In this document: one piece after another, positions 22,404-34,690 of the stretch
How the letters are laid out: every line of letters starts with the position of its first letter
Position numbering within the stretch: the first letter of the stretch is position 1
Sequence record: PQ390715.1
Length of the DNA: 64,000 nucleotides
Reading direction: 5' to 3' (one strand)
From: Escherichia phage SHEFM2K
The notes under the pieces: model-generated
The model's database searches: none
The model's input: only the letters and a program-made list of their open reading frames with translations
What the model was told of the DNA's origin: nothing
Program-made: the position numbers and the translations under genes

Positions 22404-22454
22404 GATGCCAGTACTTGATACTGGCTTTCTTATTTGTATTAAATATAGTATAAT
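22404..22454 (+). promoter_or_regulatory. Intergenic cassette: hairpin GCCAGTACTTGATACTGGC + T-tract, then -35-less promoter-like TATAGTATAAT + SD
   Basis: Near-identical cassette upstream of 9 array genes. Confidence 0.55.
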
Positions 22455-22469
22455 GATAAAGGAGGAACT

Positions 22470-23648
22470 ATGTTACCTTTTGGAAGAATGTTGAATTATG
22501 GAAATGAAGCACCGGGCGTACCAACACCAAAAGATTTCTTTTTGGATGTATCATCCGGCAAACCTACTATGTTGATGCTTTTGGATAACGGCGAAGTATG
22601 GGGTTGTAGTAATGATGGACAACTATTAGGTTTAAACACTACCGCGTCAGCATACGGTAAGCCATACTTTGTTATGGAAAATGTTAAGTTAATGTTCGCG
22701 TCAGTGTGGGGGACATTACTTATCACTAACGATAATAAAGTGAAGTACACTGGTAGACAAACCATGTTTAATGGTTCATCTAATTATTGGAGTACTTTTC
22801 AAGATTTTACAACGAAGTACACGACTGTTGGTATTGACATAAGTACTATAGAAAAAGTTGGATTCAATACTGGTACATTATTCCTACGCACAACTAATGG
22901 TGATTTATGGGGTCATGGAAATAACGCTAATGGTTATTTCGGAAAAGGAAATACCGTGGCGAATTACACACCAACCAAGATCAAGACTAATACATTAGAT
23001 TTTTGGTTAACTAATGGGAATGCAATTGTACAAACTGGCCCTAAAGAATTCTATGCTACTGGTGATAATTATTATTATCAAATGGGTGTTACGACTACTG
23101 GTAATATAACAACATGGACACAGATTTTTAAGGACGCTACTGATGATCCTGAGTTTGAATATAATGCAATGCGAACAAGTCAAGCAACATTAATACTTTA
23201 CGGTAAAGGAACTACATTCTACGCAAGTGGGAGAAACTATATGAGTTCATGGGGTGTATCTGGAGCACCAGTGGATGTTAATACTACACTATATAAAGGT
23301 ACGTTACCATTTGTACCCGGGGATTTAACATATTTTTATGCTGGTCGAGAACAAGCATATTGGACTAACTTAATCATTGATACTAATGGAGTTCTGTACA
23401 TATCTGGAACAAAAGATGGGGGTGGTGGTTCAAATGCACCTATATTTGAAGTATTACCAACCCCAAGTAGTGCAGTTGGATTCAAATGTGGTACAGCAAC
23501 ACGTTCTTATGCTATAATGGATTGTACTGGCAATCAATTTATGTACGCACGTGGTACAGCTTTGTCAGACCCTGCTGGCTTTACACCAATGAGTACACCA
23601 TTAAATCATACATGGACACACATAACAGATTTTAAATTTAACCGATAA
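22470..23648 (+). CDS. RCC1-like repeat protein, array member 2 (392 aa)
   Basis: ORF track; conserved N-terminus; RCC1-like motifs. Confidence 0.8.
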   Translation: MLPFGRMLNYGNEAPGVPTPKDFFLDVSSGKPTMLMLLDNGEVWGCSNDGQLLGLNTTASAYGKPYFVMENVKLMFASVWGTLLITNDNKVKYTGRQTMFNGSSNYWSTFQDFTTKYTTVGIDISTIEKVGFNTGTLFLRTTNGDLWGHGNNANGYFGKGNTVANYTPTKIKTNTLDFWLTNGNAIVQTGPKEFYATGDNYYYQMGVTTTGNITTWTQIFKDATDDPEFEYNAMRTSQATLILYGKGTTFYASGRNYMSSWGVSGAPVDVNTTLYKGTLPFVPGDLTYFYAGREQAYWTNLIIDTNGVLYISGTKDGGGGSNAPIFEVLPTPSSAVGFKCGTATRSYAIMDCTGNQFMYARGTALSDPAGFTPMSTPLNHTWTHITDFKFNR

Positions 23649-23651
23649 TAT

Positions 23652-23702
23652 TATGCCAGTACTTGATACTGGCATTTCTTTTTGTATTAAATATAGTATA
23701 AT
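23652..23702 (+). promoter_or_regulatory. Array cassette (hairpin terminator + promoter-like TATAGTATAAT + SD)
   Basis: Conserved cassette. Confidence 0.55.
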
Positions 23703-23719
23703 GAATAAAGGAGGGAAAT

Positions 23720-32254: not shown

Positions 32255-32268
32255 ATAAGGAGGGAATT

Positions 32269-33448
32269 ATGTTACCTTTTGGAAGAATGGTTAAGTACGG
32301 GAATATTGCACCTATATATGAATCTAGTGTAATTAAAATGCAAGCACCATCGGCTTTTACCAACAACACATTGATGATTCTGTATAAGAACGGTGATTTG
32401 TGGGGTATTGGCGGTAACAATGCTGGTATATTCGGTCTTGGAAATACAACGACACAGACCAAATGGGTTCGCTTAATGCAAAATGTGAAAAATTTTTGGT
32501 GCACAAGGAATGCTTCATATAGCTTAGTTCAGACCAATGATAATAAATTTTATTATGCAGGTTGGAACCTTTGGACTGGTACATCTAGTGCAGTTCAAAG
32601 TACTACATTTGTTGATTGTACGTCTTATTTTTCAGGTTTTAATGTGGATAATATCAAGGAGATATATCCAAATGTTCGTAATATGTTTTTACTAACAAAT
32701 GATAGTGTTCTTTACGCAATAGGTGATAATTCAACCTATGAGTTGGGTAGTAGTTCATCTACACTTACATCATTTACACAGGTTAATATTAATGTTAAAA
32801 AGGTTAGTTCATTTTTCAATAGTCCAACTTGGATAATTAAAAATGATAATTCAGCATGGAGATGTGGTAAAACTAGTACTGGTACATTGTTAACTGGTTC
32901 TGCTACTGATACTTTGACGAGTTGGACAAAGTATAGTTTTCCTACAGGCCAGTACCCCGTTGATATAATTTCATATAACAATATGTTGGGTATAGTTCTT
33001 AATGTAGATAATACTTATCCGCTATATGGTGTAGGGTCACAAAATTCACGGACAATTAGGAAATGGTGTTCTATCTAATACTAATAAGATATCTTTAACT
33101 CCACAAAGTACTTATTTACAATTAACTAATGTTTCCGATTTTGAATTTATACAAACATATTCACAAAATCCTAGGGGATTATTATATAGAAATGGAAGTC
33201 GTATTTTTGGAACAGGGTATAATAATTATGGACAGCTTGGTAACAATTCATCTAATAATGCTTCAATTTTCGTCCAAGCACAATTTCCAAATTCTGTAGT
33301 TTATGATCCGTCAACATCGTTGGTTGCTGCGAATGACAATGCATTATTTGCATATGTGAATGGGAAATTATACTACACTGGTATGTCTCCAGTAGGGACA
33401 GTTGTTGGTACATGGACTTTAACTGAATACCAATTGCCACAAATTTAA
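32269..33448 (+). pseudogene. RCC1-like array member 10, interrupted by a +1 frameshift near 33040-33047
   Basis: Frame with MLPFGRMVKYGNIAP stops at 33078; RCC1-like sequence (HGQLGNG..., GYNNYGQLGNN) continues in +1 frame to about 33448. Confidence 0.5.
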
Positions 33449-33458
33449 GGAGAAAATT

Positions 33459-34628
33459 ATGTTACCTTTTGGAAGAATGTTAAAGTACGGAAATATTAAA
33501 CCAACTCTTCCTGAAATAAAGAAATTGGATGGTAGTCAATTACATGTCGGATTACTTTATAGTACAGGGAATATGTACATGCGTGGTTCTGGTTCGAACT
33601 ATAAATTAGGTACAGGGGATGCTAGTGATGTATTAGGTGGTTGGGTACATGTACCCTATGAAGTTGATGATTTTTGGGCGTGTGTATCCGGTACATTAAT
33701 AAAGACTGTTGATAATAAGTTATATTGTGCCGGACTATACATGGGTGGATATTTTGGGGCTAGTGGTTCATATGTTAACTGGACTGAAGTAACTTCATTA
33801 TTTGTAGGTATTGACGTGTCGCAAATAAAGAATATAGAATTTACGTCAGCGGGTACTTCCGGTAGTACACTAATATTGATGTTAGATGGTCGTTTATATG
33901 GGTTCGGTATGAACAGTAGATCTGAGTTAGGTGTTAATAACAAAGTTGTATCTCCCATTCTTATAGATACTGGGGTAAGTGCAATAGGAGCACATAAGTT
34001 AGGCGGTTCATCGTTCCATTATATAAAAGGCGGTAAGTACTACAGATGTGGAACATCGGTTGGTAGTAATATTGGAAGTTCTTCTTTAACTACTTTTACG
34101 GTATTGAGTATTCCTGATAACGTTATATCTATGCAAATATTATATGACAACGTACAGTTATTATGTTTAGGAAGTTCTGGATATAGTATCTATATGGCTG
34201 GTTCTAATGATTATGGTGGAAGAGGTGTTGGTGGTTCTACTGTTTACACTACATTCAGGAAAATAGATCTTACAGGATTTGGTGTTGTTCCCAGTGAAAT
34301 ACTATTTGAAAATGCCGGAAATGGTTATGTTAATATATCAACTGATAGTACTGGAGTATATACATGTGGTGGTGGGGCTGGTGTTAATGGTTTAGGTAGA
34401 CCAACTGATGTGATACCAAGTTCACAGTTGGGTTCGGTTCAGTTCAGTACTGGAGTAGTACCATCAAATATAAGTCGCGTGTATTCACAGAGTTCGAGTT
34501 CTGTTATATATTGTATAGTCAATAATGAATTGTACTGGGCTGGGAGTAATTCATATTTTACTGATCAAACCACAAATACTGGTACACAATTTTCATTTAT
34601 TAAAATGAAGGATATGCCTTCTGCTTAG
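33459..34628 (+). CDS. RCC1-like repeat protein, array member 11 (389 aa)
   Basis: ORF track; GGAG SD directly after member 10, no cassette. Confidence 0.8.
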   Translation: MLPFGRMLKYGNIKPTLPEIKKLDGSQLHVGLLYSTGNMYMRGSGSNYKLGTGDASDVLGGWVHVPYEVDDFWACVSGTLIKTVDNKLYCAGLYMGGYFGASGSYVNWTEVTSLFVGIDVSQIKNIEFTSAGTSGSTLILMLDGRLYGFGMNSRSELGVNNKVVSPILIDTGVSAIGAHKLGGSSFHYIKGGKYYRCGTSVGSNIGSSSLTTFTVLSIPDNVISMQILYDNVQLLCLGSSGYSIYMAGSNDYGGRGVGGSTVYTTFRKIDLTGFGVVPSEILFENAGNGYVNISTDSTGVYTCGGGAGVNGLGRPTDVIPSSQLGSVQFSTGVVPSNISRVYSQSSSSVIYCIVNNELYWAGSNSYFTDQTTNTGTQFSFIKMKDMPSA

Positions 34629-34634
34629 ATTTTA

Positions 34635-34690
34635 TGCCAGTGCCTTGTACTGGCATTTTTTTGTCCTAAATATAATAACGATTTACATTT
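34635..34690 (+). promoter_or_regulatory. Diverged array cassette (hairpin GCCAGTGCCTTGTACTGGC + TATAAT)
   Basis: Same architecture, diverged sequence. Confidence 0.45.

Follow-up and report, generated by a model that had tools for sequence, protein, structure and literature searches.

A putative terminator and T4-type late promoter cassette between RCC1-like genes of an Asteriusvirus jumbo coliphage

The late promoters of phage T4 are read by gp55 together with gp33 and the gp45 clamp, to give late transcripts with 5' ends 6-7 nt past the promoter element, and SPO1 gp28 is a phage sigma-70-family factor with its own promoter class. The T4 late promoter, TATAAATA, occupies positions -13 to -6 and is read by gp55; position -13 is variable, and CTAAATA is found in Aeh1 (PMC1524935). 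ATAAATA was proposed earlier as a late motif of the related phages CBB and GAP32 (PMC5259590). Moreover, T4-type phages carry PeSLs (promoter-early stem-loops), in which a terminator is combined with a promoter and through which gene modules are shuffled (Arbiol et al. 2010, PMC2839356; Comeau et al. 2014, PMC4122927). Here, we discuss a repeated cassette in a 64,000-nucleotide stretch of Escherichia phage SHEFM2K (PQ390715.1; "the window"), in which a hairpin, a promoter-like sequence and a ribosome-binding site recur between tandem RCC1-like genes. We consider that the cassette probably combines a terminator, a T4-type late promoter used via a gp55-like sigma factor and a ribosome-binding site, and that it also acts as a junction at which genes are swapped. 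Start site, timing, acting sigma factor and termination are inferred here from the anatomy, motif statistics, conservation, alignment breakpoints and homologies that we describe.

The cassette shares with T4 late promoters a short AT-rich element near -10, the lack of a -35, a position upstream of virion genes and the presence of a gp55 homologue in the phage group. Its TAAATA core corresponds to -11 to -6 of the T4 consensus, with a variable preceding base as in Aeh1, and the element has six of eight matches to the T4 octamer and six of six to the core of this phage group. It differs from T4 late promoters in reading (T/G)TAAATA, not ATAAATA, and in having TATAA(T) at a fixed distance of 3 nt behind. 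The gp55-like protein likewise differs from T4 gp55; it is longer (279 aa) and its C-terminal half alone aligns. With PeSLs, the cassette has in common a repeated stem-loop terminator plus promoter of ~65 bp around single genes in a hypervariable region, and the junctions of gain, loss and replacement between close relatives coincide with cassettes. Unlike in PeSLs, however, the promoter is of late type and not sigma-70 early, the cargo consists of diverged paralogs of one virion family and not of unrelated ORFans, and conservation continues past the promoter through 14 codons of the gene. Given the TAAATA core and the lack of both a -35 and a TG, the cassette is therefore PeSL-like in its working but not a PeSL. 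The idea of a phage sigma factor that steers the host polymerase to a timed gene set is shared with SPO1 gp28-type systems. Those systems and the "divergent RpoD-like" promoters proposed for CBB and GAP32 have distinct -35 and -10 elements; a class of this type is present in the phage group (see below), but the cassette is not one of its members.

Anatomy of the cassettes in the RCC1-like array

The window comes from an Asteriusvirus jumbo coliphage. Its region 21000-36000 is 98.6% identical to Escherichia phage vB_Eco_slurp01 and also matches 35 other jumbo coliphage or Salmonella phage records of this genus (including PBECO4, 121Q, phAPEC6, and G17). The region holds an array of 11 RCC1-like paralogs (Table 1), the products of which all start with MLPF(G/A/V)RM..YGN and match RCC1-repeat and RCC1-like-domain families. 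Eight of the phAPEC6 array proteins (gp003, gp005, gp006, gp007, gp009, gp010, gp549, and gp551) have been detected by mass spectrometry in purified particles (PMC7247149). The RCC1 array proteins are virion components, which fits late expression. The frameshift in gene 8 is at a T6 run (near 29975-29985), and the slurp01 annotation has the same split. Gene 10 (region 32269-33458) stops at 33078 and encodes 269 aa, as does phAPEC6 gp007, a protein detected in virions.

An earlier note on this DNA described nine copies of the same cassette. The hairpin GCCAGTACnnnGTACTGGC (≤2 mismatches) does occur nine times in the window, all on the + strand at the cassette starts listed in Table 1, and is absent from shuffled sequences. 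Alignment, however, gives eight full and near-identical cassettes (~65 bp), located before genes 2, 3, 5, 6, 7, 8, 9, and 10, whereas the ninth has a degenerate promoter, CTAAATATAATAACG, ahead of a broken paralog (ATG 34701). The sequence ATATAGTATAAT (≤1 mismatch) was found eight times within the array, and TAAATAnnnTATAAY occurs nine times against 0.19 expected; the ninth of these occurrences is the gene 1 promoter at 21259, which has no hairpin. Genes 4 and 11 are without a cassette and start 8-10 nt after the preceding gene. The hairpin itself, described with a 3-nt loop, is real, but three of its copies read GCCAGTACTTGATACTGGC, with a 7-bp stem and a 5-nt loop.

In the cassette, TAAATA lies 3 nt upstream of TATAAT. 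It is present in all 10 array promoters, as TTAAATA in the cassettes and GTAAATA before gene 1, with 24-26 nt between it and the ATG, or 28 nt in the case of the degenerate ninth; TATAAT is only 16-17 nt from the ATG. That a hairpin and T tract are followed by a promoter without a -35 and without a TG, as the note stated, was borne out. The best hexamer at 16-18 nt is TTCTTA, TTTCTT, or CTTTCT, with at most three of six matches, and the -35 position is taken up by the terminator stem and T tract. Positions -15 to -13 of the internal cassettes read TAG; only gene 1 has a TG (TGATATAAT). A sigma-70 consensus scan of the array gave 90 sites against 88.5 by chance, and the cassettes were not among the sites listed. 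The contrast drawn with a canonical early region also stands, region 1-16000 being full of perfect TTGACA-N16/17-TATAAT promoters. Our survey of the literature on 121Q/PBECO4, phAPEC6, Sharanji, fEgEco12, UE-S1, RaK2, and PA5oct found no promoter, start-site, or transcriptome data on the array, and no paper describing the cassette in these phages.

Table 1. Positions in the window of the array, its genes and cassettes, and other features discussed in the text
Feature	Position	Strand	Details
Array of 11 RCC1-like paralogs	21291-34628	+	remnants reach 35853
Gene 1	21291-22400	+	RCC1-like
Gene 2	22470-23648	+	RCC1-like
Gene 3	23720-24922	+	RCC1-like
Gene 4	24931-26040	+	RCC1-like
Gene 5	26111-27250	+	RCC1-like
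Gene 6	27322-28470	+	RCC1-like
Gene 7	28542-29732	+	RCC1-like
Gene 8	29805-30984	+	RCC1-like; frameshift after ~59 codons
Gene 9	31056-32198	+	RCC1-like
Gene 10	32269-33078	+	short form
Gene 11	33459-34628	+	RCC1-like
Remnant paralog(s) after ninth cassette	34701-35853	+	short MLPFGR-start open reading frame at 34701; 298-aa RCC1-like open reading frame 34957-35853
Promoter-only copy before gene 1, TAAATA-TGA-TATAAT	21259-21273	+	no hairpin; extended -10 TGATATAAT; ATG 21291
Cassette 1	22407-22469	+	hairpin 22407-22425 (-10.4 kcal/mol), T tract, TAAATA 22440-22445, TATAAT 22449-22454, Shine-Dalgarno, ATG 22470
Cassette 2	23655-23719	+	hairpin 23655-23673 (-12.0 kcal/mol), TAAATA 23688-23693, TATAAT 23697-23702, ATG 23720
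Cassette 3	26047-26110	+	hairpin 26047-26065 (-12.4 kcal/mol), TAAATA 26080-26085, TATAAC 26089-26094, ATG 26111
Cassette 4	27257-27321	+	hairpin 27257-27275, TAAATA 27290-27295, TATAAT 27299-27304, ATG 27322
Cassette 5	28477-28541	+	hairpin 28477-28495 (-12.4 kcal/mol), TAAATA 28510-28515, TATAAT 28519-28524, ATG 28542
Cassette 6	29740-29804	+	hairpin 29740-29758 (-13.3 kcal/mol), TAAATA 29773-29778, TATAAC 29782-29787, ATG 29805
Cassette 7	30992-31055	+	hairpin 30992-31010, TAAATA 31025-31030, TATAAT 31034-31039, ATG 31056
Cassette 8	32205-32268	+	hairpin 32205-32223 (-12.4 kcal/mol), TAAATA 32238-32243, TATAAT 32247-32252, ATG 32269
Degenerate ninth cassette after gene 11	34636-34700	+	hairpin 34636-34654 (GCCAGTGCCTTGTACTGGC, -14.4 kcal/mol), T7, CTAAATA 34666-34672, then TAATAACG
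Late-type TAAATA outside array	50527-50532	-	right after hairpin and T tract; 41 nt upstream of 509-aa open reading frame (phAPEC6 gp035c, virion protein)
Late-type TAAATA outside array	51175-51180	-	36 nt upstream of open reading frame 50755-51138 (phAPEC6 gp037c, virion protein)
TG(G/A)GACA-N13-TGnTA(T/C)AAT copy	51217-51242	-	motif match
Sigma-70-family (RpoD-like) gene, regions 2, 3, 4	62458-63423	-	context; probably not cassette regulator

We propose the following model for the cassette. An intrinsic terminator, with an 8-10-bp GC-containing stem formed from CCAGTAC/GTACTGG and then UUUCUUAUUU, would end the transcript of the upstream paralog. Beyond it by 14 nt lies a putative T4-type late promoter, with a TAAATA core and no -35, which would be read by the host core polymerase with the gp55-like "minimal" late sigma factor. 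Transcription is predicted to start 6-8 nt after TAAATA, inside TATAAT, giving a leader of ~20 nt, and the strong ribosome-binding site (AAGGAGG) would form the third part of the cassette. In this model, TATAAT is taken as a strong version of the YATA start-site context behind many late TAAATA elements of these phages. Most paralogs would each be a late transcription unit of their own, consistent with virion products, and the cassettes with the blocks of the first 14 codons would act as recombination joints, like the PeSLs of T4-type phages.

The TAAATA element and the candidate sigma factors

TAAATA is found in every hairpin-bearing cassette of eight loci (the window, slurp01, PBECO4, G17, UE-S1, phAPEC6, EJP2, and WPEC3). 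Upstream of its RCC1 gene, GAP32 has a different terminator and then GGTAAATActaGATATT, while the RCC1 array of fHe-Yen9-04 has a single GGTAAATAtgaTTACAA upstream. TAAATA is kept in both of these phages, which represent two other genera, and the TATAAT position reads GATATT in GAP32 and TTACAA in fHe-Yen9-04. Since TAAATA survives at these homologous promoters where TATAAT does not, the working promoter element is more likely to be TAAATA than TATAAT.

The last T of the -10 is one of the two most critical bases in its recognition by sigma-70-family factors. This T is conserved only to 81% in Asteriusvirus and is replaced by C or A in natural copies. The TATAAT that the note reported for the cassettes applies to most of them, but two of the eight in the window have C at this position, and EJP2 has TATGAT in three cassettes. 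Moreover, TATAAT used as a -10 would give a leader of ~10 nt, so that the mRNA would begin almost with the Shine-Dalgarno; those clear sigma-70-type promoters that were compared have leaders of ~25-50 nt. Of the 48 late sites outside the array, 24 have YATA at a distance of 3-5 nt behind TAAATA, compared to ~5% for control TAAATA sequences inside genes; YATA would put a pyrimidine-purine step where a T4-type start would fall. Conservation, leader length, and YATA at the other late sites are the reasons for reading TATAAT as a strong form of this start-site context.

The non-array sites come from a scan of the whole phAPEC6 genome (352,598 bp), with gene calls made in this analysis. ATAAATA is the most enriched 7-mer upstream of phAPEC6 genes (36 against 3.9 expected), followed by CTAAATA, TAAATAA, TAAATAC, and TAAATAT. 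TAAATA is located 16-65 nt upstream of the major capsid, scaffold, sheath, neck, baseplate, and portal-region genes and of many others. Taking the published phAPEC6 virion proteome (PMC7247149) as the set of virion genes, TAAATA is directly upstream of 31 of the 54 non-array genes with products identified by mass spectrometry and of 41 of 492 others (odds ratio 15, p = 1e-16). The profile of the 48 non-array sites is (A)TAAATA, T-rich just upstream and with A favoured 6 nt downstream, and contains no -35 information. A genome-wide search with the cassette motif had been suggested as a way to define the regulon. In the whole phAPEC6 genome, however, no complete or exact cassette exists outside the array, and hence the cassette itself defines no wider regulon; only its TAAATA core does. 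Two late-type TAAATA elements also precede homologues of phAPEC6 virion genes elsewhere in the window (Table 1).

In phAPEC6, ATAAATAcgtTATAAT stands upstream of gp077 (46429-47647), a lone virion gene on the opposite strand with 10 peptides detected by mass spectrometry, and a hairpin resembling that of the cassettes, GCCACTACATTGTAGTGGC, lies downstream of the gene. The locus corresponds to slurp01 22479-23633, just past the right end of the window, and is an independent example of the promoter plus terminator design outside the array.

Which sigma factor might act on TAAATA? The earlier note took the array as a separately timed regulon read by a phage-modified polymerase and pointed to the sigma-70-family gene in the window. 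That gene is as described, with matches to Pfam Sigma70 regions 2, 3, and 4 and to solved RpoD/SigA chains. A separately timed regulon of this kind is very likely, but the sigma-70-like gene is probably the wrong regulator. The better candidate is the gp55-like late sigma factor, phAPEC6 gp237c (279 aa), which matches phrog_234, "late sigma transcription factor" (E = 8e-18), and its own family (3e-154). In tblastn searches, its alignment to gp55 of many T4-like cyanophages is confined to the C-terminal half, and Pfam gave no match. It is conserved to at least 90% in 32 Escherichia jumbo phage records and to ~74% in CBB and RaK2. Its gene lies outside the window, and we infer its presence in the phage of the window from relatives with 97-99% identity. 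For "group 2" jumbo phages, Iyer et al. described both a minimal and an RpoD-like sigma type, and they also reported gp33 orthologues in this group (PMC7824862).

Several observations weigh against a T4-type late promoter read through gp55. Searching solved structures by sequence gave no match to the gp55-like protein, and the CBB authors reported no homologues of T4 gp33 or gp45 (PMC5259590). TAAATA is only 6 nt long, in AT-rich DNA, and the base that precedes it is T or G in the cassettes, where A is preferred at the other late sites (30/48). The cassettes are copies of one another and thus constitute few independent observations. TATAA is conserved to 92-98% within Asteriusvirus, above the 3-nt spacer, and is thus under constraint; it could be a second, overlapping promoter. 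In addition, termination may be partial because the U tract is interrupted. Gene 1, the EJP2-type cassettes, GAP32, and fHe-Yen9-04 provide the independent support for TAAATA.

The constraint on TATAA leads to the possibility of two overlapping promoters, where TATAAT would be a weak, -10-only promoter used earlier by host sigma-70 or the RpoD-like factor and TAAATA would drive the main late burst. We consider this unlikely. Both elements are kept with a fixed 3-nt spacing in two cassette types with differing flanks, the TG of gene 1 creates a true extended -10 as in the middle class (see below), and TAAATA-N3/4-TATAAT is also found at the virion genes gp077, gp274c, gp231c, and gp179c. The internal cassettes, however, have neither TG nor -35, TATAAC and TATAAA variants persist, and a transcript driven by TATAAT would have a very short leader. 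At most late promoters, YATA alone occupies this place, in keeping with a start-site context.

That TATAAT is instead the -10 of a -35-less promoter read by the host core polymerase with the phage sigma-70-family factor itself appears quite unlikely. The sigma gene is real and in phAPEC6 belongs to an operon with a consensus early promoter, and the 92-98% conservation of TATAA includes the otherwise different EJP2-type cassettes. However, a sigma factor with regions 3 and 4 would be expected to need a -35 or a TG, and the cassette offers neither; the variable last T, the loss of the hexamer at the homologous GAP32 and fHe-Yen9-04 promoters, and the ~10-nt leader with the Shine-Dalgarno at its 5' end also speak against it. 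Moreover, the RpoD-like factor is 99% identical in the PBECO4/121Q group, but its identity falls to 59% in WPEC3, BF17, and fEgEco12 and to 35% in EJP2; WPEC3 and EJP2 nevertheless have the same cassette core. Ecwhy_1, which a table in one paper hinted to be a phage without the RpoD-like sigma, has one (59% identity) and hence does not provide a natural knockout.

This sigma factor is fitted better by a third promoter class, TG(G/A)GACA-N13-TGnTA(T/C)AAT, which has 19 strict matches in phAPEC6 (e.g., 124153, 156043, and 200018) against 0.35 in shuffles and one match in the window (Table 1). It precedes replication and nucleotide-metabolism genes and the gp55-like gene. No other non-host-like class that we found combines a -35 with a -10; that the cassette lacks the features of this class is indirect evidence. 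We see this class as a better candidate for a (middle) regulon of the RpoD-like sigma than the cassettes. The operon of the RpoD-like gene in phAPEC6 has a consensus TTGACA-N17-TGgTATAAT promoter, by which this factor would be available early. Collectively, these patterns suggest a two-sigma cascade in which host sigma-70 would lead to the RpoD-like sigma, this to the gp55-like sigma, and the latter to TAAATA.

The hairpin and the cassettes as gene-swap junctions

If TAAATA is the promoter, what precedes it would be the terminator of the preceding gene. The folding energies of the cassette hairpins range from -10.4 to -14.4 kcal/mol (z = -4 to -5.6). The stem starts 4-8 nt past the stop codon and is followed by the interrupted U tract, so that each hairpin has the composition of an intrinsic terminator, a GC-containing stem-loop and then a U tract just 3' of a stop codon. 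The G17 GenBank record marks the array hairpins as ARNold terminators. Across eight genomes, there are 43 distinct hairpin variants with loops of 3-8 nt; the core CAGTAC/GTACTG is fixed, and the outer stem pairs co-vary (G-C to A-T and C-G to T-A), as in GCCAG/CTGGC, ACCAG/CTGGT, and GTCAG/CTGAC. A terminator also stands directly ahead of TAAATA at 11 of the 48 non-array late sites in phAPEC6, and this arrangement is a recurring design of these phages.

It is very unlikely that the inverted repeat is mainly a DNA or RNA site for a factor recognising a genome-wide CAGTAC/GTACTG motif, and not mainly a terminator: AGTACT does occur 277 times in 64 kb against 22 expected (CAGTACTG 61 times against 0.9), GTACTG, CAGTAC, and AGTACT are the top three over-represented 6-mers in phAPEC6 (918 against 120 expected), and the stem core is kept in sequence beyond mere pairing, but the place right after stop codons, the T tract, loops that vary, and the compensatory changes in the outer pairs all fit intrinsic terminators, ARNold calls the hairpins as such, and other late genes use unrelated terminator stems at the same place. 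The two roles are not mutually exclusive.

The three 6-mers occur in every reading frame, and their density is higher between genes and in the early region. The GTACTG/CAGTAC motif makes up the cassette hairpins, and many early promoters bear it in the spacer or beside the -35. Examples in the window are at 846, 3063, 15535-15568, 21222, and 29749; others are in phAPEC6, GAP32 (1440-1480 of the stretch examined), and fHe-Yen9-04 (1580-1700 of the stretch examined). We found no paper on AGTACT/CAGTAC over-representation.

How did the cassettes come to be near-identical? Recent duplication or gene conversion had been suggested. The 11 paralogs have a median protein identity of 22% (range 15-30%), whereas identity among the cassettes is 78-100% (median 86%) and that among the first 14 residues is 79%. 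This divergence contradicts recent duplication of the array genes as the source of the near-identity. The other half of the suggestion is supported, in that the cassettes were homogenised or exchanged. Near-identity would reflect selection and/or homogenisation of the regulatory and N-terminal block.

We also compared the window array with those of slurp01, PBECO4, G17, UE-S1, and phAPEC6. Nearly all ends of high-identity alignments coincide with a cassette (2, 3, 4, 5, 7, 8, or 9) or lie no more than ~50 nt from a gene start. The 87 full-length array proteins of the eight loci form 36 clusters at 80% identity, and the order of these modules varies by phage (G-H-E-A-I-B-C-D-J-F in the window and B-Q-L-Q-L-A-V-P-C-M-D-W-J-X-F in phAPEC6). 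A recent genome paper likewise counts two "chromosome condensation regulators" among the proteins that differ most between two phages of one species (PMC13070987). With the cassette and 14 codons kept and the gene bodies ~22% identical, these blocks offer the homology at which whole genes have been deleted, replaced, or moved to another place in the order among related phages.

The Yersinia jumbo phage fHe-Yen9-04 has at least five RCC1-like genes in a tight operon, with ~10-nt gaps, one upstream TAAATA, and one terminator at the end. In light of this layout, the arrangement of one cassette per gene looks specific to Asteriusvirus.

The start MLPF(G/A)R...YG is common to all RCC1 paralogs and to two proteins that are not RCC1-like. 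One is a GAP32 "virion structural protein" with a weak match to Laminin_G_3 (1523-2155 of the GAP32 stretch examined), and the other is the product of a 244-aa open reading frame in the phAPEC6 (7325-8059), G17, and UE-S1 arrays. The shared start points to a module at the N-terminus that is portable and perhaps serves in virion attachment. A tentative extension, which we regard as possible but doubtful, is that the cassette and the 14-residue N-terminus (MLPFGRM..YGN) together constitute a portable "express late, attach to virion" adaptor and that the array is a locus of recombination-driven surface-protein diversity. The 36 modules in eight loci and the same N-terminus on the non-RCC1 proteins of GAP32 and phAPEC6 support this idea. 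If it is true, recombination at these blocks could equip Asteriusvirus phages with differing combinations of surface domains, both beta-propeller (RCC1-like) and other, which may be the hair-like fibres seen on 121Q and phAPEC6.

Neighbouring elements and wider significance

Thus far, we have focused on the late cassette. The window also contains a second family of composite terminator/promoter elements, AAAGGGTTGACTTCGGTCAGCCCTTTTTGCTATAAT, in which the -35 (TTGACT) is within the terminator stem and an extended -10 follows. They are on the - strand, with -10 ends at 40185, 41906, 42831, and 53958 and hairpins at 2758-2731, 6434-6407, and 38-11; this family, which is represented in the early region, resembles classical PeSLs more than the array cassette does. 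More than 10 early promoters at 2600-14450 on the - strand (-10 ends at, e.g., 6278, 7095, 8620, 10488, 11272, 11937, 12739, and 13298) have the pattern AGTACTTGCAA-N16-TATAAT; small open reading frames come after them, behind a conserved leader hairpin (GGGGAGAAATGGTTCTCCCC or a variant of it). A reading of TTTGTATTA as a MotA-like box, after the T4 middle promoter, was rejected, because its spacing to TATAAT is 7 nt and not ~12. Finally, a second tandem array adjoins the RCC1 array divergently (16384-21187, - strand). Its ~18 small open reading frames (60-81 aa) are diverged paralogs, with 30 pairwise BLASTP matches at 21-64% identity, and have in common that they begin much like MNKEHKEFY and end in a hydrophobic ...LLLIYRY.

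The candidate classes discussed here outline a transcription map for the little-studied group of ~350-kb coliphages, with early TTGACA...TATAAT, middle TG(G/A)GACA-N13-TGnTATAAT, and late TAAATA promoters. The map corrects a natural but probably wrong link between the array and the one sigma gene that the window contains. The 65-bp unit may also be of use in engineering, as a ready-made insulated late-expression module. The findings would also extend the concept of regulatory cassettes as recombination joints from the early ORFan regions of T4-type phages to a late virion-protein family of jumbo phages, with relevance to surface variation in these phages and perhaps to the way they interact with hosts.

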